In this document: positions 427 through 53,715 of the stretch, piece by piece
How the letters are laid out: each line of letters starts with the position of its first letter
Numbering within the stretch: position 1 is the first letter of the stretch
Source of the DNA: Candidatus Woesearchaeota archaeon
GTDB taxonomy: Archaea; Nanobdellota; Nanobdellia; Woesearchaeales; GW2011-AR9
Length of the DNA: 64,000 nt
Direction: 5' to 3'
Assembly (NCBI GenBank): GCA_018655525.1
Contig: JABIJM010000030.1
Span: 28,083 to 92,082 of the forward strand
Notes under the pieces: model-generated
What the model was told of the DNA's origin: nothing
What the model saw: only the letters and a program-made list of their open reading frames with translations
Database searches by the model: none
Position numbers and translations under genes: made by a program

Positions 427-1710
427 CTATTTCTTCTTTTTCGCATTAAATGTGAAACCAAAGATTTTAAGAGGCCGATTTTTCTTTTTATAATTCCGAT
501 AGTAGTAATAATACAATCCACCGAGTACAATTAAAATGAACACGAAGAAGCCAGTACTACTTTTTTCAATGATTCCAAATTTCTTTAATTCTGAGGTAGA
601 ATATAAGTCAAAGGTCAAATCAAACTGTTGTTGGAATGGTTTATTATTTGAATCAACATATTTTAATTTAACAGGAACATGTAGCACATCCCTTCTTTTA
701 TTCACATAAACATCAAGCTCTTCACTTTCTGTATCATCAGAATCTATATCACCAATGTAAAAATAATTTGTAGGAGAAACCAATTTATAATCTTCTGATT
801 CTTCTAAAATTAATTCTACAAATTTTACATCTGCAGTCCCTGCATTCGCAATTCCAAGTGTAATTTTTCCAGATTCACCTGATTGAAAAACCGTAGTTTT
901 CTTAATAAAAGGACGAACTTTAGGGACATCCCCCACAGAAACTGCTAAAAAGTCATCAAGAGAATATGCACTTCCTTTCTCATCATTATATGTAATGGTC
1001 ACTGGAACTTTATATAATCCAGGTGTTGCATCAGGTTTTGCAATAATCCGAAATGTTAACGCATCTTGAAAATCATTATTTAAGTTAGAGATTCTCCTTT
1101 CAGAAGAACTTTGGAATGGTGCTAATGGAATATCGTCACCATCAAAATCTAATTTGAATTTAATATCTTTTAATAAAGAATCTGCTTCATTTTTGACAAC
1201 AATCGTTACTTTAGCATCTTCTCCTGGTGCAACTTGTTCTGGTTCAGATTTAATAGAAATAATATCTAAGATTGCATCCTGTGTTTGCACATCAATTAAA
1301 AATTGATCATCAACAAATGTTACTGAATTTGTGCCTAAGTTTACTTCTACTTCTAATTCAAGATCACCTTCAACTGCATCCTCATCAACTTTCAAGGTAA
1401 AAGTAACATATTCTGCATCTGCTCCGGTAGAACTTGCACGTAATTTCCCGAGGTTTTTAGAAGCTGATTCCCCGTACATTTTAAAGGGATATTTTGGATG
1501 TAAAGTCATAATTGCATCTTTATTTGTTTCTTCAGCTTGATTCTCTATTTTAAACTTCACATCAAAAATTTGACCGGGTTCAACTGGATCAGGGGTCTGT
1601 GAAACTAATGTGACAGAGATATCTGAAACGTCTGCAACTGCCAAAGGAATTAATGACAAAAGAAAAATGCTAAGTACAACTAATAAAATTGTTTTTTTTG
1701 AAACCACCAT
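427..1710 (-). CDS. Secreted or cell-surface protein with N-terminal signal/TM, beta-sandwich (CARDB-like) repeats, C-terminal TM and a short basic tail
   Basis: N-terminal hydrophobic segment, acidic repetitive body, C-terminal FFVFILIVLGGLYYYY TM followed by a KKKNRPLK tail. It lies directly upstream of the FtsX-type permease on the same strand. Confidence 0.45.
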   Translation of the reverse strand: MVVSKKTILLVVLSIFLLSLIPLAVADVSDISVTLVSQTPDPVEPGQIFDVKFKIENQAEETNKDAIMTLHPKYPFKMYGESASKNLGKLRASSTGADAEYVTFTLKVDEDAVEGDLELEVEVNLGTNSVTFVDDQFLIDVQTQDAILDIISIKSEPEQVAPGEDAKVTIVVKNEADSLLKDIKFKLDFDGDDIPLAPFQSSSERRISNLNNDFQDALTFRIIAKPDATPGLYKVPVTITYNDEKGSAYSLDDFLAVSVGDVPKVRPFIKKTTVFQSGESGKITLGIANAGTADVKFVELILEESEDYKLVSPTNYFYIGDIDSDDTESEELDVYVNKRRDVLHVPVKLKYVDSNNKPFQQQFDLTFDLYSTSELKKFGIIEKSSTGFFVFILIVLGGLYYYYYRNYKKKNRPLKIFGFTFNAKKKK

Positions 1711-9715: not shown

Positions 9716-9832
9716 GCCTCTGTAGCATAGTGGCTAATGCGTCTGCCTCGTAAAATCTAGGTTTCCTTGATTTGTTCAGAAATCTTGATTTCAGACAGCA
9801 GAAGATCGGGAGTTCAAATCTCCCCAGGGGCT
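9716..9832 (+). tRNA. tRNA-Thr (anticodon CGU) with a 44-nt canonical intron (9753..9796) after position 37
   Basis: Hand-folded cloverleaf. Acceptor GCCTCTG/CAGGGGC (one G-U), U8 A9, D-arm GCAT-AGTGGCTA-ATGC, anticodon stem TCTGC/GCAGA interrupted by the intron, T-arm GGGAG-TTCAAAT-CTCCC, discriminator U. Oligo-T follows. Confidence 0.75.
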
Positions 9833-13312: not shown

Positions 13313-14641
13313 TTAATAATATGTTTGTTCTTCGTCTTCGTCGTCTTTACGTAAACGGCTGAAACCGATGATTAAACCAATTAATACTAGTAATACAACT
13401 AATACAATTAAAGCTAATTCTAATCCGTTTCTTAAACTTACTCCGTCTTCACCAGCAACTACGTTTGCATTTAGGCTTACAGTTTCTAAAACTTCATCGC
13501 CTGCTTTAACAGCTACAGATGCTACGTGATTACCAGCAGCAGCGTCTCCAGAGACAGCTACATTAACGTAAACAACTTTGTTTTTACCAGGTTCTAATAC
13601 TACTAAGTTGTCACTGAATGAAGCAGTTGCCCAGTCACCAGTTACAGCTTCTAAAGTATAAGCTTTTGAAGTTGTTCCAGCGTTGGTTAATGCTACACCG
13701 TATGTTGCTGTTTTACCGGTTGCAACAGTTTGTGTTGAAGGACCAACAGCTAATACTAACTTATCAGATCCTGCAAACTTACTGTCTGCTACTACGTGTA
13801 CGGTTCCTGTTTTTGTAACAGTTTCTCGTAAATCATCATACATTGCAGTTACTTTGATTTCGTAATCACCTTCTGCGGTACTTGCAGGGATAGGTAAGAA
13901 CATTTCTTCAACATCTTCGTAATCTACATTGTGGTTATCTGTTTTTACAACGTCAACGTATTTACTTGTGGTAACTCCTAAAGCAGGAATACTTACAGTA
14001 ACTTTAACGTCTTTCTGATCTTTGTCACCGAAGTTCTCTAAAAGAACGGTAGGGTGAATTGATCGTCCAGCTTTAACAGTAGAACCAGGGAATAATGTTA
14101 CTTCCTTAATATCTAAAGCATGACGTGCAGGTTCAACATTTAATTTTACAACTCTTCCAATAGGAGCAGATGCACTATTATAAATGTTTAAGTGTAACCA
14201 ATATACTTGCTTATCTAAGTTTTTAGGTAAGTCAATGTTTAACTTAACAGTTTTTTGTGTATTTGCAGCCATATCAAACAGATGTGTTGAATCGCTTAAT
14301 TTTTCATAATCAGAGTATTCATAACCCTTGATCTTTGCTTCAACTTCAACGTTTTGAACTGCTTCTTTAGTGAAAAGAGTTACTTCAACTTGCATCTTTT
14401 CTCCTTCTTCAACAGTTACGGAAGGTACATTTACTGCAACATTCCCGTTGAAATCCACTACATCTTCACCAATTTTATTTCCATTAACATCTAACACGTT
14501 TACTGCTTTGTTTCCAAAGCTTACACTATTGCCATCTACTTCTACTTCCCATGCGAAGTTGGAATCATCCAAAGCTACCACGCTGGAAACCATAAGTAAA
14601 CTGATGACGAATAATGCCATTATACTTACTATTTTTTTCAT
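13313..14641 (-). CDS. Cell-surface protein: signal peptide, tandem beta-sandwich (CARDB/Ig-like) domains, C-terminal TM and acidic tail
   Basis: N-terminal MKKIVSIMALFVISLLMVSSVVA signal. C-terminal LALIVLVVLLVLIGLIIGF TM plus RLRKDDEDEEQTYY tail. Confidence 0.5.
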   Translation of the reverse strand: MKKIVSIMALFVISLLMVSSVVALDDSNFAWEVEVDGNSVSFGNKAVNVLDVNGNKIGEDVVDFNGNVAVNVPSVTVEEGEKMQVEVTLFTKEAVQNVEVEAKIKGYEYSDYEKLSDSTHLFDMAANTQKTVKLNIDLPKNLDKQVYWLHLNIYNSASAPIGRVVKLNVEPARHALDIKEVTLFPGSTVKAGRSIHPTVLLENFGDKDQKDVKVTVSIPALGVTTSKYVDVVKTDNHNVDYEDVEEMFLPIPASTAEGDYEIKVTAMYDDLRETVTKTGTVHVVADSKFAGSDKLVLAVGPSTQTVATGKTATYGVALTNAGTTSKAYTLEAVTGDWATASFSDNLVVLEPGKNKVVYVNVAVSGDAAAGNHVASVAVKAGDEVLETVSLNANVVAGEDGVSLRNGLELALIVLVVLLVLIGLIIGFSRLRKDDEDEEQTYY

Positions 14642-14771
14642 TTTATTCTTCCTCCAAATCTAATTTTCAATTTTGGAATATGTTTTCTCGTCAAAACGAA
14701 GATTGTTTTTTAAACCTTTCGTTGTTTTGAGTATGGTTGAGTAACTACACCTAATAACTATTGTAAAATAA

Positions 14772-16817
14772 TTATTGGATGGTTACTGTTCTGTACACCA
14801 CACTATTGTGGTGGTCGTTGCTTACAGTCAACACAAGAGTATAAGTTCCTGGTTGAACGTCATATGGCACATTTACGTAAAGGGTCTTCGTTTCTGAATC
14901 TCCTTTTTTCAAGTCAAACTCTCCTGAAGTTCCATACATATTTGCGTCATAAACGAATGCTCGGATGTTTGTATCATCCCAGTCTTCGTTACCATTATTC
15001 TTTACATGTACTCCTACAGTGATATAATCCCCAGGTGTTGCCACTTCTGGTAACACGTGTACGGATGAAATCTTTGTATTTGCGTACCCTGCACGAACTG
15101 TAATTGTAAATGTTTGTGAGAAAGATTGTTTCCCATCATTGATTGCTAAAATCACTTCATGAGATCCTTCTTCTGCAACCCATTCAACTAAACCTGTTTT
15201 TGATACTTTCATACCAGCAGGTCCTTTTACAACATAATATTGGATTGGTTTATCACTTTCAGCTAAAATCTGATAGGTATAATCTTCACCATCTGTTGCG
15301 GTTGTAACTGGTGTTGATACGATTTTCAAAGTATCAACGATTACAGGATTTACTGGATCACAAGCATCTCCTTTACCATCTTTATCTGTATCTTTTTGAT
15401 CAGGGTTAAATGTTAAAGGGCAGTTATCTTGACCATCTGGGATTCCATCTTTATCAGAATCTAAGATTACAACGCCAACACCAATCTTGTAAGATTGTGT
15501 GGTAATTCCTCCAAATCCATCTGCAACTTGTACAGACACATCAAAAGAATTTCCTGAATCTGTTGCAATAGGAGTCCAACTTACGATACCGTTAACAAGA
15601 TTCATTCCTGCAGGTTTTTGTGTTAAACTTACAGTTAATGCATCATTATCTGCATCACTTGCTTTTACAGCATAAGTATATTCAACACCAACAGTTGCGG
15701 AATGACCTGGTTGAGAGGTAATTGTTGGATCTCTGTTTACATCTGCAACAGTAATTGTTACAGTTTGTGATTCAGAGTATGTTTTTCCATCATAAGATTG
15801 AAATTTAATTTTCACATCTTTTGATGTTGCAGGATGTTGAACAAAGTCAAATCCTGGCGTAATGGTGAATTTTCCTGTAGATTCATCAAAGGTTACTTCT
15901 TTAGGTAAAGCCGTACTTTTGAACATGTTATTTACTTGACATCCAAATTCAAACCATTTACATGATTTTAAATTTGTAACATCTTTCGCAACATAACTAG
16001 ATCCACCAGAAACTGTGAAAGTTTTTGATACTCCTTCATTAACAATGTGGTTTTTTACACCTACTTCTAAGGTAGGAGGTTTGTTTTGATCAACAACAGT
16101 TAATTGAACAGTTGCTTTTCCGATTCCACCCTTACCATCATTTCCTTCAAAAACAACATCATATGTTCCTTGATCTTCAAAGGTTGGTTGCCATGAAAAA
16201 GTATATACAGCTCCCCATTTTTGAATGTTAGATCCTTTTGGTAAATTGTTACTTGTTACAGTTACAACATCACCATCTACATCAGAAGGTACAATTACAA
16301 AGTTAAAGTAAACATCTTCATTTACTGTTTTTTTGTATACTTTAGCTGGTTTTGATTGTACTACTTCTAAATCAGGCATGGTTAATTCTGGATTGTTATT
16401 ACCAGATAAAACGTTTAATTCTAAAAAGTCTGTTTTAATAGAATTGCTATCTGCAAGTTTTACGGTAACAACATAGTTTCCTACTTTATCATTATAATTT
16501 TTAGGAACAACAGTAATTTCTTCGTATGCTATATTCTTTGTATCAATTGTATTTTGAGCTACAACACCAACAATGTTTCCTGTTGCCTTATCATTAATTT
16601 GAACTGTTAACAATACACTATTTTCAGGAGATGAGAAATATCCTGTTGCAAATTTTGCTGATTGACCGTTCACAATAGTTTTACTCATTGATCCGTCATC
16701 CCATGCAAAAAGTTGTTTACCTTGAGCTGCTTGTGTCCAATCTACTTGTGCAACTGCTGCACTTGAAACTAGCATTAAAGCAAACATAAGTACAATTAGA
16801 TGTTTAAATATATTCAT
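14772..16817 (-). CDS. Large secreted adhesin-like protein with Ig/cadherin-like domains and thrombospondin type-3 (Ca-binding) repeats
   Basis: Signal peptide. [35 protein letters not shown] is a TSP3-type DxDxDG repeat. Many beta-sandwich repeats. Confidence 0.5.
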
Positions 16818-17830
16818 TTTTTACTCTCACTTCCTCTACAATATCCTAATGCTACTCCAAAGAATTTATCTCCTTCAGTTGAGATCATTGCTGTAGGTGT
16901 AACACATACACCGTGACCATTTCCAGCTTCAATTCTGATTGGAACTGCTAATCTTACATAAGGTGAAATAGATTCATCAACGCCACCTTTCTGATCAAAA
17001 GAACCTGCGCCTTGCATTACAACACCATCAATTGCTTTTGAGACATAAGTAGATTCGTTCCATGTAGTTTCTTTACTTAATACTCCAGCTGTGAATCCTA
17101 AACCAAGACCTACACGACTTCCATTGTAAAGTAAGGTATTGTTTTGTAATGATAATCCTAAAGCGGTTGCTGATAATTGTGCATCACTAGTACTATCTTC
17201 AGTTAATGTTAAACTTCCAGCTAATGGACCTTTTGCTGCATCTTTTACAACTTGATCTTTGTTAATTAAAGTCTCACCAGAATATAATCCTACATGAGCT
17301 CCTAAACTCCAATCTCTTCCGGTAGGATGATATCGTAATCCAATATCAATTCCGGTTGTGTTTTGGATATTTCTATTTGATTCTGCTAAAACTCCATAAA
17401 CCCCACCAAGTTCAACTTCAGGTAAACCTGCTAATGTTGGAACATGGTTTGTGATTGTTTTTGTAATTGTTACAGGTGTTGCAGCATAAGATAATCCTAC
17501 TGGTGTTGCACTTCCAGGTAAAGTTACCCCACGTGCCATTGTAACTTTAGTTGCACCATCAGGTAATCCTACTGGTGTTACTTTTTGTGGTAAACCAACA
17601 ACATCATCTAAACTTGCGTTAGAAGGTATAGTTACGGTTCTTTTTGTTGTAAAATTGTAAGTTGTTTTTCCATCCTGAACGTTTTGAACTTGAACAGTTG
17701 TTTGTGGTGCTTTAGCTAATACACTTGGTGCGTATGCTGCTACTGCTAATCCTGCTGCTAATACAACAGGCGCAACCACTTTATTTTTTAAATATGTAAA
17801 CATTTTATTGTCCTCCTTGATTCCTTGCAT
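16814..17830 (-). CDS. Secreted Gly/Thr-rich protein with alternating-hydrophobic, beta-strand-like segments
   Basis: Signal peptide [15 protein letters not shown]. Repeated GLxxG / GVALGY patterns. 4-nt overlap with the upstream gene. Confidence 0.35.
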
Positions 17831-18506
17831 GTAGAGAATCTAATTTTTTTTGAAATTCATCATAAGAAAATGATTGTGTCCCTGCAACTTCTGGAAAATT
17901 ATAATCTGCTCCTTTCACTCTAGCTGCAAGAGTTTGTGGCGCTGGATTAGTCTTTCCTAATACACGACAAAAGTTAGGAGTTTCTTCAACAGTATCTAAT
18001 TTAGAATTTTTTAAATAAGGACGAGAACTTCTTTTTCGTTTCCCAAAGCCATCAACGCCAATGCTTAAACCATTTTCATCAATTGACAATACAATCTCTT
18101 CTTTGCCTTCAAGAGCTCTTTGTGATTGTACTCTGTATTTATTCCAAAATCTTTTGTGAGGGTGACGTGGATTTTCAGCAAAGCATGCATCGTTATGTTT
18201 CATAACTGCAAATAATAAACTTTTCTTCACACCATCCATTTCAAAGTATTTTACAGGAAAGAAATTTGTTTCTCCTTCCTTAACAACATAACCTAATTCA
18301 CCAGTATGTTGAGTTTTAGATTCCTCAATGGAAGGGCCATTATATTCTACAGTGACTTCAGTTCTAGTCTGAGGTAAAACTGGAGACATACATCCTCCTA
18401 AAGCAGACGCTATGTAAATTCCACCGGCAACGATTGCCGTTTTTACAGTTGATTCTAAAATTGATTTATATGACATTTTATTTCTCCTCCTAATACGGAA
18501 CCTCAT
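17805..18506 (-). CDS. Putative lipoprotein or membrane-anchored protein
   Basis: N-terminal TM ending in SALGGC|M, a weak lipobox (LGGC). Confidence 0.35.
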   Translation of the reverse strand: MRFRIRRRNKMSYKSILESTVKTAIVAGGIYIASALGGCMSPVLPQTRTEVTVEYNGPSIEESKTQHTGELGYVVKEGETNFFPVKYFEMDGVKKSLLFAVMKHNDACFAENPRHPHKRFWNKYRVQSQRALEGKEEIVLSIDENGLSIGVDGFGKRKRSSRPYLKNSKLDTVEETPNFCRVLGKTNPAPQTLAARVKGADYNFPEVAGTQSFSYDEFQKKLDSLHARNQGGQ

Positions 18507-19692
18507 CGGTTTCTAATTGTTTTCTAAACCTTCTCACACGAGGAGATCTTCTTGTTCGTTTTCTTGAACATCGTTCTTTTAATGAATCGTATTTACCTTG
18601 CAAATTACTATAGTCTGAATTGCATTTATTAAGATCATTTACAACCCATCCAACAGATTGTGAATCACCGTTAGCTAAAGTTATCATTCGTTTATCATTA
18701 TCTTGACAGACACCTAATTTTTGCTCTAAAGTCGCTTTAGCTGTATTAGCAGATTTTAATTTACCATCTAATTCAGTTACTTTTGCTTCAGAAGTGTTTA
18801 ATTTTCCACGTGTTGTATCTAATTCAGCCTGTGCTGTCTCGTACAATCCTTTATTTGCATTTGCATCCGCTAATTGTCCAGCATCTGGCCTTTGACTTAA
18901 TACATAAGTAATAGTTGCCAAACCTGCACTTGCAACTAATGCAACACCTGCAACAATTTTTGCAAGGTTTCCATATCCAATTGCCTTTCGTTGAGAATTA
19001 ACATGACCAAGACGTAATCCAGTATAAGATTTTCTTCCTTCTGAACCAAGTTGTAAATAATCAATAACTTTTTCTTCTGCAATCACAACATCATGATTTA
19101 ATGTTATGATAGCGGATCTCTTTTCTCCAAGTTCATTAGTTAAAGAAGCTAACTCAACATTACCTTTATCATCTAATTTTCCATTATCTCTTGATTTTTC
19201 AAGCAGTTTAATATCTTCAAGATCAACAGTATATTCTCCTTCAAGACCTACAAGTGTTAATTTTTTATTATAATAATCACCTTGATCTAAAGATTTATCA
19301 ATCCAAGAATCTACAACTTCTAAACTTCCTGCACCATAAACTTGATTAAGTGAATCATATGCCGCAAGTGCAAATTTAGAGTTATATGCCGCTAATTTGT
19401 CTAATGTATTTACTAAATGAGCTTCAACTTCTCCAATTCCATTATTTTCAAGAACGCCTAATATTCCATCTTTTTTCCTATAAAGACCCCGTACTTCATC
19501 TGCAAATTCATTTACAAATAAAGCCTTAGTATCAGGAAATTGAAGTCCTTCATGTGCATATTTTTTTTCAATTCCTTCAATTCTATCAAGAAGATTGCTT
19601 TGGTATAAAGGAATTGTTACTGTATCGTTAACATTACCGTCGCCAGCACGCTTTGTATCATTATTATTATCAGTCATAATTATAACCCCCAA
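18490..19692 (-). CDS. Coiled-coil protein with one internal TM segment and an Arg-rich C-terminus
   Basis: Long heptad-like region (LEQKLGVC..., LDGKLKSANTAKATLEQKL), TM IVAGVALVASAGLATITYVLS, C-terminal RKRTRRSPRVRRFRK. Confidence 0.4.
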   Translation of the reverse strand: MGVIIMTDNNNDTKRAGDGNVNDTVTIPLYQSNLLDRIEGIEKKYAHEGLQFPDTKALFVNEFADEVRGLYRKKDGILGVLENNGIGEVEAHLVNTLDKLAAYNSKFALAAYDSLNQVYGAGSLEVVDSWIDKSLDQGDYYNKKLTLVGLEGEYTVDLEDIKLLEKSRDNGKLDDKGNVELASLTNELGEKRSAIITLNHDVVIAEEKVIDYLQLGSEGRKSYTGLRLGHVNSQRKAIGYGNLAKIVAGVALVASAGLATITYVLSQRPDAGQLADANANKGLYETAQAELDTTRGKLNTSEAKVTELDGKLKSANTAKATLEQKLGVCQDNDKRMITLANGDSQSVGWVVNDLNKCNSDYSNLQGKYDSLKERCSRKRTRRSPRVRRFRKQLETDEVPY

Positions 19693-19809
19693 GTTATGTG
19701 AATACTACTCCCAAGTAAACACTTCTTTATAAACTTTTTGGAACAGTTGTTAGAATATAGTAGTTACAAACCACTGATGACCTTATTTAAGCTTAAAAAC
19801 ACCAATTAG

Positions 19810-21066
19810 TTATAAAAATTGTGAAAGAATTCCTAATGCAAAAAGAAGAATTAATACAATTCCAAGAATTTTATGTTTGCCCATTTGGTACTCTGGTTTC
19901 CGTTCTCCAAGCCTTTTGACTTTCCAATACATCAGGATTACAAGTATCGCATCCAATCCACCAGCGAATGCACCAGTTAATCCTAATATCGCAATAAAAC
20001 TTGTAACATCAAACAACACAATAATTAAAGGAACAAGAAAAGCAAGTGCTAAAGCATATGTTCTTTTAAGATTATAATCTAAATGATACATATCAACTAA
20101 TGCTAAACCTAATGTTAAAAACGAGGTAAACATTGCAAGTACTGCAAGAAGGTTTGCAAATAATCCAAGAATAGGATTTGTATAAATGCTTAATGCAACA
20201 GTTGCGATTCTTTGATTCGCTTCAAGAAGTGAAAAATTTTGGAACCCAATAGATCCAACAACAATAAATGTGAAAATGATGTAAAGTAAGATAGGTGTTA
20301 AAGATCCGAAAATGATTGCCTTTTTCATTTTCTTTCTATCTTTATCAAAGATCTGACGAATTTCAGGAATTGCGGGCGATCCCATTAATGCAAATAAAAT
20401 CACTCCATATGGTGCAATGAAGATTCCAATATTAGAAAACAACACATTTTTGATTGATCCTAAAAATGCCATAAATCCAGATCCAAATAAAGATCCTGCA
20501 AGATTCATAAAAATAGTCGTGTCAATTCCTAAAAGGTTAGTTAATTGAATTTTATCATAGGATAATAAACCAATAATCCCTACAACAACAAATAAAAGAC
20601 TAATTAAAATTAATTCCATGGTGCCTGTAGCTTTAACTCCCCTTGAAATAATTATAAAAGTTACAACAAAGAAGATTAAAGTATAATACAAAGGTTCACC
20701 CCAACCAAAAATAGAATGTAATGTTGCACCTTCTCCAATAAGATATGCAATTAATGCACCATAGCCATTAATGAGCAAAGAAACCATCATAAAACGTTTC
20801 CCTGTTTTTCCCAAATATTTTTCTGCATAACCTGTTAATTGATGAGGTTTTTTTGTCCTTAAAACAATCTCTCCTAGAAAAAGATTTAACATCAAAAATG
20901 CAAGACCTAATACAATAATTAAAAATGAACCATAGACAAAACCAACTTGAGAGATCACAAAAGGAATTCCCAACATTCCTGCACCTACGATGGTACCAAT
21001 TAATGTTGTAATTGCCATCAAAAACTTTTTGTTAGCAAGAACTGGATTTAGTTCACCCTTTTTCAT
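19810..21066 (-). CDS. Amino-acid permease family (APC-like) transporter, about 12 TM
   Basis: 418 aa, hydrophobic throughout, with Gly-rich TM1 (GTIVGAGMLGIPF) typical of APC-family amino-acid permeases. Confidence 0.55.
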   Translation of the reverse strand: MKKGELNPVLANKKFLMAITTLIGTIVGAGMLGIPFVISQVGFVYGSFLIIVLGLAFLMLNLFLGEIVLRTKKPHQLTGYAEKYLGKTGKRFMMVSLLINGYGALIAYLIGEGATLHSIFGWGEPLYYTLIFFVVTFIIISRGVKATGTMELILISLLFVVVGIIGLLSYDKIQLTNLLGIDTTIFMNLAGSLFGSGFMAFLGSIKNVLFSNIGIFIAPYGVILFALMGSPAIPEIRQIFDKDRKKMKKAIIFGSLTPILLYIIFTFIVVGSIGFQNFSLLEANQRIATVALSIYTNPILGLFANLLAVLAMFTSFLTLGLALVDMYHLDYNLKRTYALALAFLVPLIIVLFDVTSFIAILGLTGAFAGGLDAILVILMYWKVKRLGERKPEYQMGKHKILGIVLILLFALGILSQFL

Positions 21067-21159: not shown

Positions 21160-21864
21160 TTGATTTTTATTTTTAAGACACTCCAATCTTTTGTATTGCG
21201 AAAAGATGAGAGGTCAACGAAAATGAAAAATAAAGAGACATTAGCTGAAATCATTGGAATAATGCTTGGAGATGGTTGTTTGTACAAAGGACACGGATCA
21301 TATCAAACAATAATTACTTCTGGAAAAAATGAAAGAGAGTGGATAATGTATGTTAAAAATTTATTTGAAAACTATTTTGAGAAAACATTTAAAATTGTTG
21401 AAATCAAGTATGGGATTCAAGCAAAATGTCATTCAAAGGAAATTTTAGAGAAATTTTTAGAGGTGGGATTATGTCATGGAAATAAAGTCCATAATAAAGT
21501 CACGATCCCACCCTGGTTATTTCTTAAGAGAAAGTATTTAATTAAAACTGTTCAAGGTTTATTTGATACAGACGGTTGTGTTTATAATAAATATGGGAAA
21601 TATGCTCAAATTGAATTTAAATTTGGTTGTGAAGAAACAACAATATCTGTTTGTAACGCCGTAAGTAATTTGGGTTTTAATACTACAAAAGTTCAAAAAC
21701 AATATAATAATGCAACAGGCAAATATAGGTGGAGATTCTACTTATGTAGACAAAAAGAGATTGATTTATTTTTTGATATAATTAAACCAAAAAATTCTAA
21801 ACATATTGAAAGATATAAAAAAATAAGAAGTGGGGATACTGGGACTTTCAAATGGAAACGTTAA
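21160..21864 (+). CDS. LAGLIDADG homing endonuclease (double-motif; probable start at ATG 21223, MKNKETLAEIIGIMLGDGCL)
   Basis: Two LAGLIDADG motifs (IIGIMLGDGCL; VQGLFDTDGCVY). Paralog of 52946..53662. Confidence 0.7.
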   Translation: MIFIFKTLQSFVLRKDERSTKMKNKETLAEIIGIMLGDGCLYKGHGSYQTIITSGKNEREWIMYVKNLFENYFEKTFKIVEIKYGIQAKCHSKEILEKFLEVGLCHGNKVHNKVTIPPWLFLKRKYLIKTVQGLFDTDGCVYNKYGKYAQIEFKFGCEETTISVCNAVSNLGFNTTKVQKQYNNATGKYRWRFYLCRQKEIDLFFDIIKPKNSKHIERYKKIRSGDTGTFKWKR

Positions 21865-24014: not shown

Positions 24015-24647
24015 CTAAGGAGCTGTACTTCCTGGGATAAGATAATTCATGGGACAACAATTATTCCTCCCCATTTTCTTAACATCATATAGACCTTTAT
24101 CCGCAGAAACAATCATTCTATTTGCCATTTCTTCACGCTCAGTAGAAGAACCCAAATCAATTTTGGGTGTAAGTTTCCCATAAGAATCAACATCTAACGT
24201 TGAAATTCCTGCACTAAAGGTTATTCCTCTCGTAACACCTTCTTTTGGATTAAAAACAACTTTCTTAAAAGCCCAATGTAATCGCTGAAATGTTGCCAAT
24301 GCATTTTCAAAGTTAGTTTCAGGCATAATAATCCCAAACTCTTCTCCCCCATATCGTGCAAAAAGGTCTGTAGCCCTAAGGTGTTTTGAATAGAAATCCG
24401 CTGCCTTTTTAATAACATAATCACCTTCCAAATGACCAAAATTATCATTGTAAGCTTTAAAATTATCAATATCCATCATTGCCAAAGATAAAGGATGTTT
24501 TGATCTATCAAATAACGCAATGTGATATTGTAATTGATCAATAAATGTTCCTTTATTTGCAACTCTCGTCATAGAATCTGTAATTGCCATAGATCTAAAC
24601 TCACTATTAATTAATGCCATTTCAACTCTTGCCAACAAAGAGTCCAT
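24015..24647 (-). CDS. GGDEF domain protein (diguanylate cyclase-like) with an intact GGEEF active site and RxxD I-site
   Basis: ITDSMTRVANKGTF, MMDIDNFKAYNDNFGHLEGD, LRATDLFARYGGEEFGIIMP, ADKGLYDVKKMGRNN. The N-terminus (LLARVEMAL) looks like the last helix of a receiver domain. Confidence 0.75.
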   Translation of the reverse strand: MDSLLARVEMALINSEFRSMAITDSMTRVANKGTFIDQLQYHIALFDRSKHPLSLAMMDIDNFKAYNDNFGHLEGDYVIKKAADFYSKHLRATDLFARYGGEEFGIIMPETNFENALATFQRLHWAFKKVVFNPKEGVTRGITFSAGISTLDVDSYGKLTPKIDLGSSTEREEMANRMIVSADKGLYDVKKMGRNNCCPMNYLIPGSTAP

Positions 24648-31883: not shown

Positions 31884-33524
31884 ATGAATATTAAAAAAAC
31901 TGTAGCAATAACATTGTTAGTATTGTTTGTACTGAGTATTGTAGGACAAAGCGTATTAGCAGAACCATTTAATCCTAATTTTAATTACGGAGATTATGAA
32001 TTTGAGTTTAAACAAGATTTTTACGATAATGAAATGTTTAATCCAATTGATGCACCTTTCAATAAACTTCCAGCTGAATTTAATACAGCACCAAAATTCA
32101 GTGTAGGTCAAAAATACTTTAATGCGAAAGAAGGAGAAATCTTTACATTCAATATGATTGCAGATGATAAAGAAACAAGTAACTTAAAATTTAGCTTTAA
32201 AGAAAATTTAGACAAAGCATACATTTCCTCAAATGGAAAAGCAGCAAAATTCACATGGACTATTCCTTATACCGCAGTAGAAGGAGATTCAAAATTTCAA
32301 GAAATAAACTTTGTAGTAAGTGATGGACAATCTTTAGATAATATGAAGATTGTTGTAAATATTGAAAATGTGAACAAATTACCTTATATTCAAACATTAA
32401 ATACCTTAACATTTACAGAAAATGAAGTAAATACACATTACATTTATGCATATGATTTAGATGTAATTGATACTGCAAAATTAACTGTAGATGAATCAAC
32501 ATTACCTCAAGGAGCTAAATTTTTACCGAACTCACAAAGTTCAGGAAACATCTTTTGGCAACCAACCTTTGAACAAGGTAACAAAGATTACAAAGTAATA
32601 TTTACAGCAGATGATGGTAAAGGAAAAACCAACAGAGTTGTAACATTCAAAGTTGTTGATAAAAACCAAGCACCAGTAATCACAATTGCAGATCAAACTG
32701 TTACCGCTGGAGCAACATTAGAATTAGATTTAAAGAGCAAAACTTCAGATGCTGATAATGATGCATTAACTATAACTGTTGAAGGAACATTAAAAAACTA
32801 TTTTGATGCAACTTCAGGAAAATTCACATGGAAACCTTCAGTCTTAAACTTAGGTGAACACACATTAACAATTGTTGTTACCGATGGAACAGACGTTGTG
32901 AAGAAAGATGTGAAAATCACAGTTAAAACTTCAGCGGCAAATGGAAATAATAACAACCCAATTCCAGGCGTACCAAAAACAGCTGCTCAGCTAGCATTAG
33001 ATGCAGATTATACAGATTTAAATGTAGATTTCAAAGATTTAGAAAATGACTTTGATGAATACGAAGAAGATTACAATAAAGCAAAGAAAGTAAATAACCT
33101 TAACAATGTTGACAAATATGCTAGTAAACTAGAAAAAGTTGACGACAAGTTAAAGGATCTTCGTAATGAAGTTAAAGATTTCATTGACAAAGCTGAAAAA
33201 ACTGCAGGTAGCAACAAGAATGTTATTGATAACGCTGAAGAATTAAAAAATGATATTGAAGAATTACGTGATGATATTGACGTTGTTTTAGGAAAGAAAA
33301 CCGCAACAACCGTATCTGGAAGCATCTTCAAATCTGGAAGCGTTTCATCTCAAGATTCCAATAAACCTGTTGAAGTAAATATGTTACAGTTCCCTTTAAC
33401 CGGCGGAGCAGTTGCAGACACAACTTCAACTGGCACAGGATTCGGAGAATTAGCATTCTTAATTGGAGGAATTGTAATCTTGTTTACGATTATAATGTTC
33501 CTTTTAGTTGTGTTACTGAAATAA
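31884..33524 (+). CDS. Cell-surface protein: signal peptide, Ig-like repeats, coiled-coil stalk, C-terminal TM anchor
   Basis: Signal MNIKKTVAITLLVLFVLSIVGQSVLA. Repeated beta-sandwich units. DLENDFDEYEEDYNKAKK coiled coil. C-terminal LAFLIGGIVILFTIIMFLLVVLLK. Confidence 0.5.
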   Translation: MNIKKTVAITLLVLFVLSIVGQSVLAEPFNPNFNYGDYEFEFKQDFYDNEMFNPIDAPFNKLPAEFNTAPKFSVGQKYFNAKEGEIFTFNMIADDKETSNLKFSFKENLDKAYISSNGKAAKFTWTIPYTAVEGDSKFQEINFVVSDGQSLDNMKIVVNIENVNKLPYIQTLNTLTFTENEVNTHYIYAYDLDVIDTAKLTVDESTLPQGAKFLPNSQSSGNIFWQPTFEQGNKDYKVIFTADDGKGKTNRVVTFKVVDKNQAPVITIADQTVTAGATLELDLKSKTSDADNDALTITVEGTLKNYFDATSGKFTWKPSVLNLGEHTLTIVVTDGTDVVKKDVKITVKTSAANGNNNNPIPGVPKTAAQLALDADYTDLNVDFKDLENDFDEYEEDYNKAKKVNNLNNVDKYASKLEKVDDKLKDLRNEVKDFIDKAEKTAGSNKNVIDNAEELKNDIEELRDDIDVVLGKKTATTVSGSIFKSGSVSSQDSNKPVEVNMLQFPLTGGAVADTTSTGTGFGELAFLIGGIVILFTIIMFLLVVLLK

Positions 33525-52627: not shown

Positions 52628-52727
52628 GGGCCTGTAGCCTAGCCTGGATAGGGCGCCAGCCTTCTATATGAGAAAGCAATTCTCTGAAGGCAGCTGGATA
52701 CCGTGGGTTCGAATCCCTCCTGGCCCG
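52628..52727 (+). tRNA. tRNA-Arg (anticodon UCU) with a 25-nt intron (52667..52691) after position 37
   Basis: Acceptor GGGCCTG/CTGGCCC (one U-U), D-arm GCCT-AGCCTGGATA-GGGC, anticodon stem CCAGC/GCTGG around loop CUUCUA+A, T-arm GTGGG-TTCGAAT-CCCTC (one U-U), discriminator G. Confidence 0.55.
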
Positions 52728-52945: not shown

Positions 52946-53662
52946 ATGAAAATGGATAAAATAAATTTATATGAGTTTATTGGAATTATGATTGGTGATG
53001 GATGTTTATTAGATTATCCTAAACATAACATTTATGGTATAGAAATAACGGGAAACGCAACTGAAGAAGTAGATTTTTATAAAAAAATAGAAGAGTTCAT
53101 TAAATCAAATTTTGATGTGAATGTAAGAGTTCATGTTCGTAAAGATAAAACGGGACAATCCTTAAAATTAATTTGTTACAGCAAAATACTAGCAAATTTT
53201 CTAAAGAAACAAGGTATAAAAAGAAATAAAACCTATTCAACACAAATTCCAAGTCATTTATTAGAATGGAAATACAGTAAATATGTGATTAAAGGAATCT
53301 TTGAAACTGATGGCTGCATTTATTTCTCTAAATCTAAAAAGATAGCTTATCCAACCTATCCGCGTCTTGAAATTTGTACAGCTAGTTTACAGTTAGCTAC
53401 TCAAATCATTAAAATTTTAAACACAAATGGATTTACCGCAAGATCATATATTAACAAAAACACGATAACTATTTATATGAGCGGTGAAAATATGCTTAAT
53501 AAGTGGTCTACAGAGATAGGCTGGAGCGGTCTAAAAAATCAAACAAAATATGACCTTTGGAAATCTTTAGGATACTACATCCCAAAAATTTCACTTCCAG
53601 AAAGATTAAAATTATTAGGCGTCGGTGGCAAAGTGGCTAATATTGACCTCATAAGTCGATAG
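52946..53662 (+). CDS. LAGLIDADG homing endonuclease (double-motif)
   Basis: FIGIMIGDGCL and IKGIFETDGCIY motifs. Paralog of 21160..21864. Its last about 14 codons overlap the 5' exon of the downstream tRNA-Cys candidate. Confidence 0.7.
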   Translation: MKMDKINLYEFIGIMIGDGCLLDYPKHNIYGIEITGNATEEVDFYKKIEEFIKSNFDVNVRVHVRKDKTGQSLKLICYSKILANFLKKQGIKRNKTYSTQIPSHLLEWKYSKYVIKGIFETDGCIYFSKSKKIAYPTYPRLEICTASLQLATQIIKILNTNGFTARSYINKNTITIYMSGENMLNKWSTEIGWSGLKNQTKYDLWKSLGYYIPKISLPERLKLLGVGGKVANIDLISR

Positions 53663-53715
53663 CAAGCAGTCCCCTGCAGAGGGACGGATCGGGGGTTCGA
53701 GTCCCTCCCGGCGCT
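53619..53715 (+). tRNA. tRNA-Cys (anticodon GCA) candidate with a 21-nt non-canonical insertion (53648..53668) between D-arm and anticodon stem
   Basis: The 3' part is unambiguous: anticodon arm GTCCC-CUGCAGA-GGGAC, variable GGATC, T-arm GGGGG-TTCGAGT-CCCTC, acceptor 3' CCGGCGC, discriminator U. The candidate 5' part GCGTCGG-TG-GCAA-AGTGGCTAATA-TTGA has a perfect acceptor match and D-loop invariants, but a weak D-stem. Confidence 0.45.

Follow-up and report, generated by a model that had tools for sequence, protein, structure and literature searches.

This study analyzed five consecutive minus-strand genes, designated g1 to g5 from upstream to downstream, in a 64,000-nucleotide stretch of DNA (the window) from Candidatus Woesearchaeota archaeon (contig JABIJM010000030.1, positions 28,083 to 92,082). 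The basis of all results is computational, and coordinates are those of the window; unless stated otherwise, features lie on the minus strand. The g3 product is predicted to contain an eight-stranded β-barrel resembling those of bacterial outer-membrane proteins (OMPs), and g4, which follows it, is predicted to encode a calcium-binding fibre. As modeled, the locus would be a module that pairs an OMP-type barrel with an adhesin, here in an archaeal phylum. We modestly favor the view that it consists of two adjacent envelope units, namely a fibre and anchor operon (g1 to g4) and a separately promoted S-layer-like protein (g5). The bolder proposal, that g3 and its positional homologs are genuine lipid-embedded archaeal transmembrane β-barrels assembled without the β-barrel assembly machinery (BAM), is advanced tentatively from structure models, as a serious candidate that falls somewhat short of probable.

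Predicted fold of the g3 product

The g3 gene (16814..17803) encodes 329 aa, and homolog comparison, AlphaFold2 and Foldseek together point to an OMP-like eight-stranded β-barrel preceded by a signal peptide and a disordered linker. The Sec-type signal peptide (residues 1-30; 17714..17803), with cleavage after VLA as judged by eye, keeps its hydrophobic core in all homologs. It is followed by a conserved N-terminal hairpin and a Thr/Val/Pro-rich linker (residues 31-125; 17429..17713), which are highly conserved within the close clade and have a predicted local distance difference test score (pLDDT) of about 30 in both models. The barrel domain (residues 126-323; 16835..17428) is delimited by AlphaFold2, Foldseek and conserved period-2 hydrophobicity. 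AlphaFold2 was run on shallow alignments of four and then eight sequences. With four sequences, the C-terminal domain was already all-β with long antiparallel strands; with eight, residues 126-323 reached a pLDDT of 75-93 (77 residues at 90 or above), all five models were concordant, and residues 1-124 comprised the signal peptide and a disordered region.

Foldseek searches of the PDB with these models gave 27 and then 47 matches at E ≤ 1e-3, and all those shown are bacterial outer-membrane barrels: Legionella Dot/Icm porin III (the top match), Ail, OmpX, OmpA, NspA, the N-terminal domain of OprF, Pla/OmpT, OpcA, FapF and autotransporter β domains. The match probability was 1.0, with target-normalized template-modeling scores (TM-scores) of 0.4-0.63. 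An earlier note made from the sequence alone had described this product as Gly/Thr-rich with β-strand-like alternation, which is what we find along with a signal peptide and period-2 hydrophobicity. The note had recognized no analogue for the open reading frame (ORF) 16814..17830; the models now point to a structural one, the bacterial eight-stranded outer-membrane barrel.

The modeled topology is that of OMPs: near the termini, the eight strands are linked through turns of 4, 4 and 3 residues, and the connections at the other end of the domain are longer. Strands 3-6 are 24-29 residues long in the AlphaFold2 model, so that two polar hairpins extend about 15 residues past the rest (hairpins of about 5 nm). 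Column-wise hydropathy across homologs of 21-25% identity revealed eight strict period-2 hydrophobic stretches, all beside the short turns. Gly makes up about one third of the alternate face, which also carries a few conserved charges, and aromatic residues lie at the strand ends; this alternation pattern is that of OmpX and OmpA. The sole family-invariant motif, GPLAGxL (residues 192-198), lies at the tip of the first long hairpin. When 1.84 billion representatives were searched exhaustively by HMMER with the g3 profile, only five clusters were returned, each of them from this locus; paralogs or bacterial relatives of g3 are therefore not detectable. The four distant clusters (21-25% identity) all lie within the same gene order.

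In OmpX, Ail, NspA and the N-terminal domain of OmpA (OmpA-N), as predicted for g3, a signal peptide precedes about 150-200 residues that form eight antiparallel amphipathic strands. Also shared are the short turns near the termini, long hairpins opposite (the "fishing rod" of OmpX), a Gly-rich polar interior face and aromatic strand ends. Among the best Foldseek matches, Ail, OmpX, OpcA and NspA are themselves adhesion proteins. Unlike OmpX, Ail and OmpA-N, g3 is of archaeal source and has no detectable sequence homology to them, an eight-residue extension past the last strand replaces the terminal aromatic residue, a conserved Cys pair lies on strands 7 and 8, and a disordered N-terminal linker of about 95 residues is present. 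When g3 is compared with the usual features of OMPs, the signal peptide is present and the eight-stranded barrel is predicted, whereas a terminal aromatic residue and an above-threshold family match are absent.

Two further features of the g3 sequence were observed. The Cys pair, C300 and C322 (16835..16900), is invariant in the close clade; the two residues sit on neighboring strands and on the non-hydrophobic face, and a disulfide inside the barrel is therefore predicted. Disulfides within bacterial OMP barrels are probably rare. In the linker (17429..17620) about five copies of a VGLP-like motif occur, their copy number varying among close relatives; these may be binding or glycosylation sites.

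Genes at the g3 position in other species

Proteins of 390-590 aa with a signal peptide are encoded directly upstream of g4 in nearly every species. A terminal Phe after an alternating G-x-G-x-x-F-like strand was found in 10 of 25 lineages, compared with a background of 12% among the ORFs of these loci (P ~4e-4, a figure that ignores shared ancestry). These Phe-terminated proteins, P0010 and nine further positional homologs, have ends such as ...GLGYKF, ...GVGRRF, ...TVGVRF, ...GLELEF and ...ISYRF. The positional homologs fall into two groups: group A includes the g3 of the window, and group B comprises those of loci L022, L026-L029, L037 and L039 of the survey described below. According to reading of the sequences and weak coiled-coil matches, group B proteins consist of a signal peptide, a Cys-rich domain, a coiled coil and eight alternating segments ending in Phe. 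The group B protein of L027 showed sub-threshold matches to Pfam OMP_b-brl (17 bits against a cutoff of 28.7) and Autotransporter, and the former reaches the end of both profile and protein. Iterated hidden Markov model (HMM) searches did not recruit group B, and BLAST found no link between them except one 39-residue match (E 0.038). Group B proteins are treated here as positional and architectural analogues of g3 only.

The two groups differ in what accompanies the barrel. In L022, L026, L037 and L039, g1 and g2 are absent and the barrel protein carries its own Cys-rich domain and coiled coil; the g2 family is confined to loci with group A barrels, which have no coiled coil in their N-terminal part. 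The two patterns are complementary, and they suggest a supply in trans, by g1 and g2, of the stalk and cell-body attachment that longer barrel proteins hold in cis.

Conservation of the locus

A word-indexed homolog search returned just one to four close relatives per gene, and the contigs of these close homologs have the identical order permease, g1, g2, g3, g4, g5 and geranylgeranyl reductase (GGR). Amino-acid identities of the window proteins to two sister lineages (sister 1 and sister 2, respectively) were 89 and 84% for the permease, 50 and 31% for g1, 49 and 48% for g2, 68 and 60% for g3, 78 and 74% for g4, 89 and 93% for g5, and 83 and 80% for GGR. A wider survey, in which one genome per GTDB species was scanned with a g5 profile, yielded 26 loci (given L numbers here), nearly all from Woesearchaeota. 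The frame permease ... g4, g5, GGR is retained in these loci, and the genes between the permease and g4 vary. Overall, the order permease, g1 and g2 (each where present), barrel gene, g4, g5 and GGR is kept in about 25 Woesearchaeota species-level genomes. Because the same gene order recurs in so many species, the clustering of these genes is not due to chance. Homologs are strictly syntenic in relatives, as would be expected from the cell-surface module proposed in the earlier note, for which scattered homologs would have been contrary evidence.

The genes g1 to g3 diverge quickly or are replaced between species, whereas g5 is as conserved as the flanks. In most surveyed loci g5 identity is 49-66%, on par with the permease and GGR (31% in L035 and 43% in L037). 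Over most species, g5 identity spans 53-93%. The hypervariability that the earlier note expected of a surface locus thus holds for the sequences of g1 to g3 and the length of g4, and not for g5. In L030 (8490..11308), the permease is followed directly by g5, without the g1-g4 cassette. The locus looks like two neighboring parts, a conserved g5 and a variable g1-g4 cassette kept beside it. The proposal that the five genes form one unit is not sustained, since g5 has its own promoter-like motif, flank-level conservation and retention in L030 without g1 to g4.

Two observations concern individual surveyed contigs. In L031 (4364..7990), the barrel gene and g4 are each broken into two ORFs, by pseudogenization or assembly error. 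Eleven contigs (L015, L016, L017, L023, L027, L029, L030, L032, L033, L035 and L037) bear the record title "uncultured Methanosarcinales archaeon" and carry a Woesearchaeota-type g5 locus, mostly with adjacent GGR and/or permease; these titles are probably placeholders or mislabels.

The g4 product, a predicted calcium-binding fibre

The 681-aa g4 product (14772..16817) has the domain matches of a secreted fibre or adhesin without an anchor, and its ATGA start overlaps the g3 stop. It comprises a signal peptide, an N-terminal WDDG domain, Ig/cadherin-like repeats, thrombospondin type-3 (TSP3) repeats and a C-terminal CARDB domain. Pfam matches were to He_PIG (four copies, E 1e-19), Big_9, Cadherin_5 and CARDB. 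The TSP3 Ca-binding repeats (residues 453-488; 15354..15461) are of the DxDxDGxxDxxD type, and phmmer searches of the PDB matched them to thrombospondin-2 (E 5e-24) and cartilage oligomeric matrix protein (COMP; 2e-21). NCBIfam models of MtsC (5e-11) and Omp28-related proteins (1e-10) also matched the repeats, and the Pfam TSP_3 match was below cutoff (20.6 bits against 25). The CARDB domain (residues 586-673; 14799..15062) matched Pfam above cutoff (E 1.3e-5) and shows weak profile similarity to the first g5 domain. The description of g4 in the earlier note, a 681-aa adhesin with TSP3 and Ig/cadherin-like domains, is borne out by the He_PIG, Big_9, Cadherin_5 and thrombospondin-2 matches.

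Orthologs of g4 range from 609 to 3106 aa. Their ends are conserved (an N-terminal WDNG; a C-terminal CARDB domain with ...YR..T[IV]), and the middle is of variable length. Judged by its domains, g4 is a predicted Ca-binding Ig/cadherin/TSP3 fibre. Similar to giant Ca-binding repeat adhesins, it has He_PIG, Big_9, Cadherin_5, CARDB and TSP3 elements and a fivefold length range through repeat number; unlike them, it has no RTX or type I secretion signal, sortase signal, PGF-CTERM or transmembrane anchor. We infer that the locus may serve in host attachment.

The g5 product, a conserved and probable envelope protein

The g5 gene (13313..14641) encodes 442 aa with a signal peptide, Ig/CARDB-like domains (Pfam NPCBM_assoc and Ig_mannosidase), a C-terminal transmembrane segment and an acidic tail, in agreement with the CARDB-like, membrane-anchored protein with an acidic tail that had been described before. 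The transmembrane anchor (residues 407-427; 13361..13423) was placed from an alignment of six sequences. In the same alignment, the anchor and its flanks, LRNGLE[IL]ALIVLVV.LV.IGLI[IV]GFSRL[RK]KD..E..[TK]YY, are almost invariant, and the C-terminal ends of g5 in about 20 further loci (L014-L039) are closely similar. This degree of conservation goes beyond what a passive anchor needs and therefore suggests an intramembrane partner or an oligomerization interface.

The layout of g5 is that of archaeal S-layer proteins with a C-terminal transmembrane segment, with which it shares the signal peptide, stacked Ig/CARDB-like β-sandwich domains, membrane anchor and short charged tail. Like archaeal S-layer genes, g5 is conserved, present in a single copy and preceded by a strong-looking promoter motif; unlike the S-layer comparators, its transmembrane segment is unusually invariant. 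Sequence searches with g5 found no match among solved S-layer proteins. The product is most likely a core envelope protein, a subunit of an S-layer-like coat or sheath. Its status as a probable core envelope gene is suggested by a promoter-like motif of its own (described below), housekeeping-level conservation, and retention in L030 without g1 to g4.

The g1 and g2 products, candidate anchors

The g1 gene (18490..19677) encodes a bitopic membrane protein of 395 aa; its start is supported by a GGGGGT Shine-Dalgarno sequence and an identical 395-aa database protein. A cytoplasmic N-terminal domain of about 240 aa precedes a single transmembrane helix, an extracellular coiled-coil region with three Cys residues and a basic tail ending in PY. 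The helix, IVAGVALVASAGLATITYVL (residues 241-260; 18898..18957), is the hydropathy maximum. The N-terminal side is richer in basic residues and the conserved Cys residues are all on the C-terminal side, which implies a predicted N-in/C-out topology. Coiled-coil matches at residues ~285-380 were weak, and these were the only hits; Pfam, NCBIfam and PHROGs gave no family match. The C-terminal tail is SRKRTRRSPRVRRFRK, with the Arg-rich part SRKRTRRSPRVRRFRKQLETDEVPY at 18493..18567; its (R/K)SPR motif and terminal P-[YF] are kept in relatives. The single transmembrane segment, weak coiled-coil matches and tail agree with the earlier description of a coiled-coil protein with an Arg-rich tail. 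Equivalents of this architecture occupy the same position in most relatives, not in all loci. They have a variable cytoplasmic N-terminal domain, a single Gly-rich transmembrane segment and a Cys-rich extracellular part, and in the closer relatives of the window they end in a basic stretch and P-[YF].

The g2 gene (17805..18476), which starts with an ATG after an AGGAGG Shine-Dalgarno sequence, encodes a predicted lipoprotein of 223 aa. Its lipobox, L-G-G-C (Cys29; ...IASALGG|C; 18390..18401), was identified from the sequence and family comparison and follows the pattern [LVI][ASTVIG][GAS]C after a signal peptide, with the Cys at its end; lipid modification is predicted. A lipobox-like motif ending in Cys occurs in all nine family members (LGGC, LAGC, AASC, AAAC, LSGC, FASC, LASC), and the lipobox Cys residues do not fall into one column of the MAFFT family alignment. 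The LGGC lipoprotein proposed earlier is thereby confirmed as a prediction. The nine sequences share the motifs AND..F, NP.DPR..W and E.IPN[FY]. Pfam, NCBIfam, PHROG and PDB sequence searches with g2 gave no match.

Thus, each product of the cluster carries a signal peptide, a lipobox or a transmembrane anchor, consistent with the cell-surface module of the earlier note. That note had named unrelated cytoplasmic folds as counterevidence; the single predictable fold, that of g3, is extracytoplasmic.

Gene starts, transcription signals and origin of the locus

The ORF listing places the five consecutive minus-strand genes where the earlier note had put them (18490..19692, 17805..18506, 16814..17830, 14772..16817 and 13313..14641), with the upstream neighbor at 19810..21066. 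Starts were chosen by AGGAGG-type Shine-Dalgarno sequences before internal ATGs and by database and contig gene calls for the window genes and their relatives. The starts so supported are 19677 for g1 (395 aa), 18476 for g2 (223 aa) and 17803 for g3 (329 aa). Because these starts sit at internal ATGs, two of the overlaps reported earlier (17 nt and 26 nt) vanish as artefacts of longest ORFs, and the 4-nt ATGA overlap of g3 and g4 remains. The corrected gaps are 13 nt between g1 and g2 and 1 nt between g2 and g3, so that g1 to g4 are tightly coupled translationally.

A TATA-like box, TTTATAAA (19726..19733), was read from the sequence about 50 nt upstream of the g1 ATG, preceded by an A-rich stretch resembling a transcription factor B recognition element (BRE); it is the putative promoter of the g1-g4 operon. 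In the g4-g5 spacer of 130 nt, T-rich sequence follows the g4 stop, and GAAAGG with the TATA-like box TTTAAAAA (14707..14714) after it forms a BRE/TATA-like motif, also read from the sequence; this is a putative promoter of g5 itself. A scan of the window for bacterial promoters and terminators gave background levels only, and is irrelevant because the window DNA is archaeal. The upstream neighbor, described earlier as an amino-acid permease, matched Pfam Trp_Tyr_perm (E 1e-35).

Proteins identical to those of the locus are deposited as hypothetical proteins of Candidatus Woesearchaeota archaeon. The window carries archaeal genes, including three presumably intron-bearing tRNAs, RtcA, aIF5B, ABCE1, Trm1, GluRS and GGR, and the GC content of the cluster genes (0.34-0.35) is close to that of the window (~0.33). 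Contamination or recent horizontal gene transfer was ruled out by the matching GC content, the archaeal flanks and the retention of the locus in about 25 archaeal genomes. For lack of PHROG support, an origin from a virus or a defence system was likewise rejected.

Proposed organization of the envelope units

In the two-unit arrangement that we favor, g4 would be a secreted Ca-stiffened Ig/cadherin/TSP3 rod without an anchor of its own. The g1 protein would reside in the cytoplasmic membrane (N-in) with its Cys-containing coiled coil projecting outward, and g2 would be lipid-anchored; together they may grip g3 by its N-terminal linker, on the side facing the cell. The g3 barrel would be embedded in a lipid or lipid-like outer layer, with the flexible N-terminal linker opposite the polar hairpins. 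The protruding hairpins, or the conserved N-terminal hairpin, could then dock the conserved end domains of g4, and the fibre would be displayed for attachment. The second unit would be the separately promoted g5, a membrane-anchored Ig-domain protein beside which the variable cassette is kept.

The location of the barrel can be graded. There is a considerable, though minority, chance that it is not lipid-embedded or that the model is wrong. An outer layer of the archaeon itself has a small chance, and the membrane of a host and the cytoplasmic membrane of the archaeon, if its single membrane were entered from outside, each have a small to slight one. An outer membrane of the archaeon itself is conceivable: for ARMAN, another DPANN lineage, cryo-electron tomography reportedly revealed both an inner and an outer membrane (PMC4243693).

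Among other explanations, the one that survives best is an ordinary S-layer neighborhood, in which g5 is the S-layer protein, g4 an Ig-repeat S-layer associate and g1 to g3 fast-evolving accessories. The g3 product would then be an up-and-down barrel or sheet that is soluble or embedded in protein, or AlphaFold would have over-interpreted an amphipathic β-rich sequence. We consider this explanation rather unlikely. Several points weigh against a membrane barrel, most of them in favor of this explanation. No match of g3 was found in Pfam or NCBIfam at E ≤ 0.1, and none in PHROGs. Comparisons by hhalign of the barrel alignments with Escherichia coli OmpA-N and OmpX were null, and PDB sequence searches with g3, g2, g5 and group B profiles returned nothing meaningful. 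The alignments behind the models are shallow, and the TM-scores against solved OMPs are modest (0.4-0.6, target-normalized). Period-2 alternation is common to soluble barrels and Ig domains too. A crude alternation score across the window proteins placed Ig-domain proteins at the top without separating them from barrels, and was dropped as a barrel finder for that reason. The g3 protein of the window lacks a terminal aromatic residue, its Tyr321 being followed by eight more residues. Among 23 positional homologs, L027 alone has a sub-threshold OMP match, and hhalign relates group A to group B with a probability of 4% (local) or 63% (global), so that their homology is not established. No BAM machinery is known from archaea, which are not known to encode Omp85 either, and Woesearchaeota have no known outer membrane. 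Finally, g5 looks like an S-layer protein held in the cytoplasmic membrane by its transmembrane helix, which by itself needs no second membrane.

Several properties of g3 nevertheless fit poorly with a soluble accessory. The fold matches shown at E ≤ 1e-3 are all membrane barrels and none is soluble. The non-hydrophobic face, with its abundant Gly and few charges, is unlike a solvent-exposed face, and every hydrophobic segment is found, as it would be in an OMP, next to the short turns near the termini. Positional homologs with a terminal Phe and the sub-threshold matches of L027 also speak against it. Since the profile comparisons with OmpA and OmpX were null, no homology to bacterial OMPs is claimed for g3. 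As neither group A nor group B shows sequence homology to bacterial OMPs, the likeness seen in the models is one of fold and design, not of demonstrated ancestry.

An improbable alternative is that g3, tethered to the archaeon through its linker or a coiled coil (held by g1 and g2), is a host-directed anchor whose barrel enters the host membrane from outside, the symbiont thus setting an attachment point of its own. If the host were a diderm bacterium, its BAM might be used through the Phe-terminal signal, with g4 serving for initial adhesion. The termini and tether of g3 are indeed on the side from which OMPs insert, g1 to g3 show the fast turnover and replacement between species that host-specific parts would show, and a bacterial-type terminal Phe occurs in some lineages. 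Cultivated DPANN archaea are contact-dependent ectosymbionts according to statements in two reports (PMC11329633, PMC11291902). An unfolded hydrophobic barrel outside the cell, however, would require a chaperone; GPLAGxL, the most conserved motif, would land inside the host, an unlikely place to meet a conserved symbiont partner; and such insertion has no precedent.

A device formed by g1 to g3 for the secretion or translocation of g4, similar to type V or two-partner secretion or the core of a type IV secretion system with its lipoprotein, barrel and bitopic subunits, and not a static anchor, is very improbable: a barrel gene translationally coupled to an adhesin gene, the Legionella Dot/Icm machine porin as top fold match, autotransporter and FapF barrels among the other matches, and the sub-threshold L027 Autotransporter match would agree with it, but an eight-stranded barrel has too narrow a lumen to pass a polypeptide (the barrels of known translocators have 12-16 or more strands and come with POTRA or linker domains), g4 carries its own Sec signal peptide, and searches of Pfam and NCBIfam matched neither an ATPase nor POTRA, Omp85 or IAT_beta.

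Comparison with known systems and implications

OmpX, Ail and OmpA-N are the closest analogues in structure, and OmpM/SlpA tethers and intimin/invasin the closest in architecture. The OmpM/SlpA tethers of Negativicutes, Deinococcus and Thermus consist of an SLH domain, a coiled coil and a C-terminal barrel; they are compared here by their layout and not through a search match. The barrel proteins of relatives without g1 resemble them in having a signal peptide, a Cys-rich domain, a coiled coil of about 100-150 aa and a barrel ending in Phe. In the window, the coiled coil would be supplied in trans by the membrane-anchored g1, and g3 has a linker instead. Unlike the OmpM/SlpA system, there is no peptidoglycan here, and about eight strands stand against a much larger porin-type barrel. 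No SLH domain was matched in g1, g3 or the 23 positional homologs. Intimin/invasin (inverse autotransporters) and two-partner adhesin systems share with the locus a membrane barrel combined with a rod of Ig-like (Big) domains for attachment, and a barrel gene next to, and presumably co-expressed with, that of the adhesin. In contrast to intimin and invasin, the barrel and the Ig rod are separate polypeptides here, and the model has 8 strands rather than 12 or 16. Searches of Pfam and NCBIfam found no IAT_beta, LysM, POTRA, TPS or ShlB domain.

Transmembrane β-barrels are regarded as a hallmark of the outer membranes of bacteria, mitochondria and plastids, and as dependent on insertases of the Omp85 family. 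If the g3 family is lipid-embedded, it would be the first native OMP-type barrel family in Archaea, conserved across Woesearchaeota. Either a DPANN outer membrane would then be tethered by g1, g2 and g3 as in diderm bacteria, or a barrel anchor would be planted in the membrane of a host. There is a substantial chance that the locus points to something more fundamental about DPANN envelopes. It bears on their structure, including a possible second membrane in some uncultivated lineages; on how minimal archaeal cells physically attach to hosts; and on whether OMP-type barrels arise and assemble outside the BAM system. The source archaeon is tiny and probably host-dependent. The 200-aa barrel domain and the 195-aa lipoprotein are clonable targets, and the frame permease ... 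g5-GGR can serve as a locus marker when the attachment cassette is sought in the genome of any member of Woesearchaeota. Literature searches turned up no account of OMP-like barrels in this phylum or other DPANN lineages; the nearest remark concerns a possible distant PopA relative in Altiarchaeales (PMC12228718). A further comparator for g5 is the hami of Altiarchaeum, S-layer-like grappling hooks of a double-membrane archaeon (PMC4460559).

Other features of the window

A free-standing LAGLIDADG endonuclease ORF (21160..21864, plus strand; Pfam LAGLIDADG_3 and LAGLIDADG_2) lies between the permease and RtcA. It is present in the window genome only; RtcA adjoins the permease without an endonuclease in L001, L003, L007 and L012, and in L012 a small PspC-domain ORF lies between the two. 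The LAGLIDADG ORF looks like a recent insertion. A protein with a GGDEF (diguanylate cyclase) domain is encoded at 24015..24647 (minus strand; E 8e-35), and in relatives a Response_reg and GGDEF protein adjoins RtcA (L001, 4276..5304). Cyclic-di-GMP signaling domains are unusual in archaea.

The three tRNA genes found by Rfam (9716..9832, 52628..52727 and 53619..53715, plus strand) are 97-117 nt long, and introns are presumed; ARAGORN finds just one of the three, without a usable anticodon. Beyond the cluster, two more exported Ig-type surface proteins are encoded: a CARDB/BatD-like protein at 427..1710 (minus strand), and a protein with Big_9, He_PIG and Cadherin_4 matches and a hydrophobic C terminus at 31884..33524 (plus strand). 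The genome invests heavily in Ig-repeat surface proteins.

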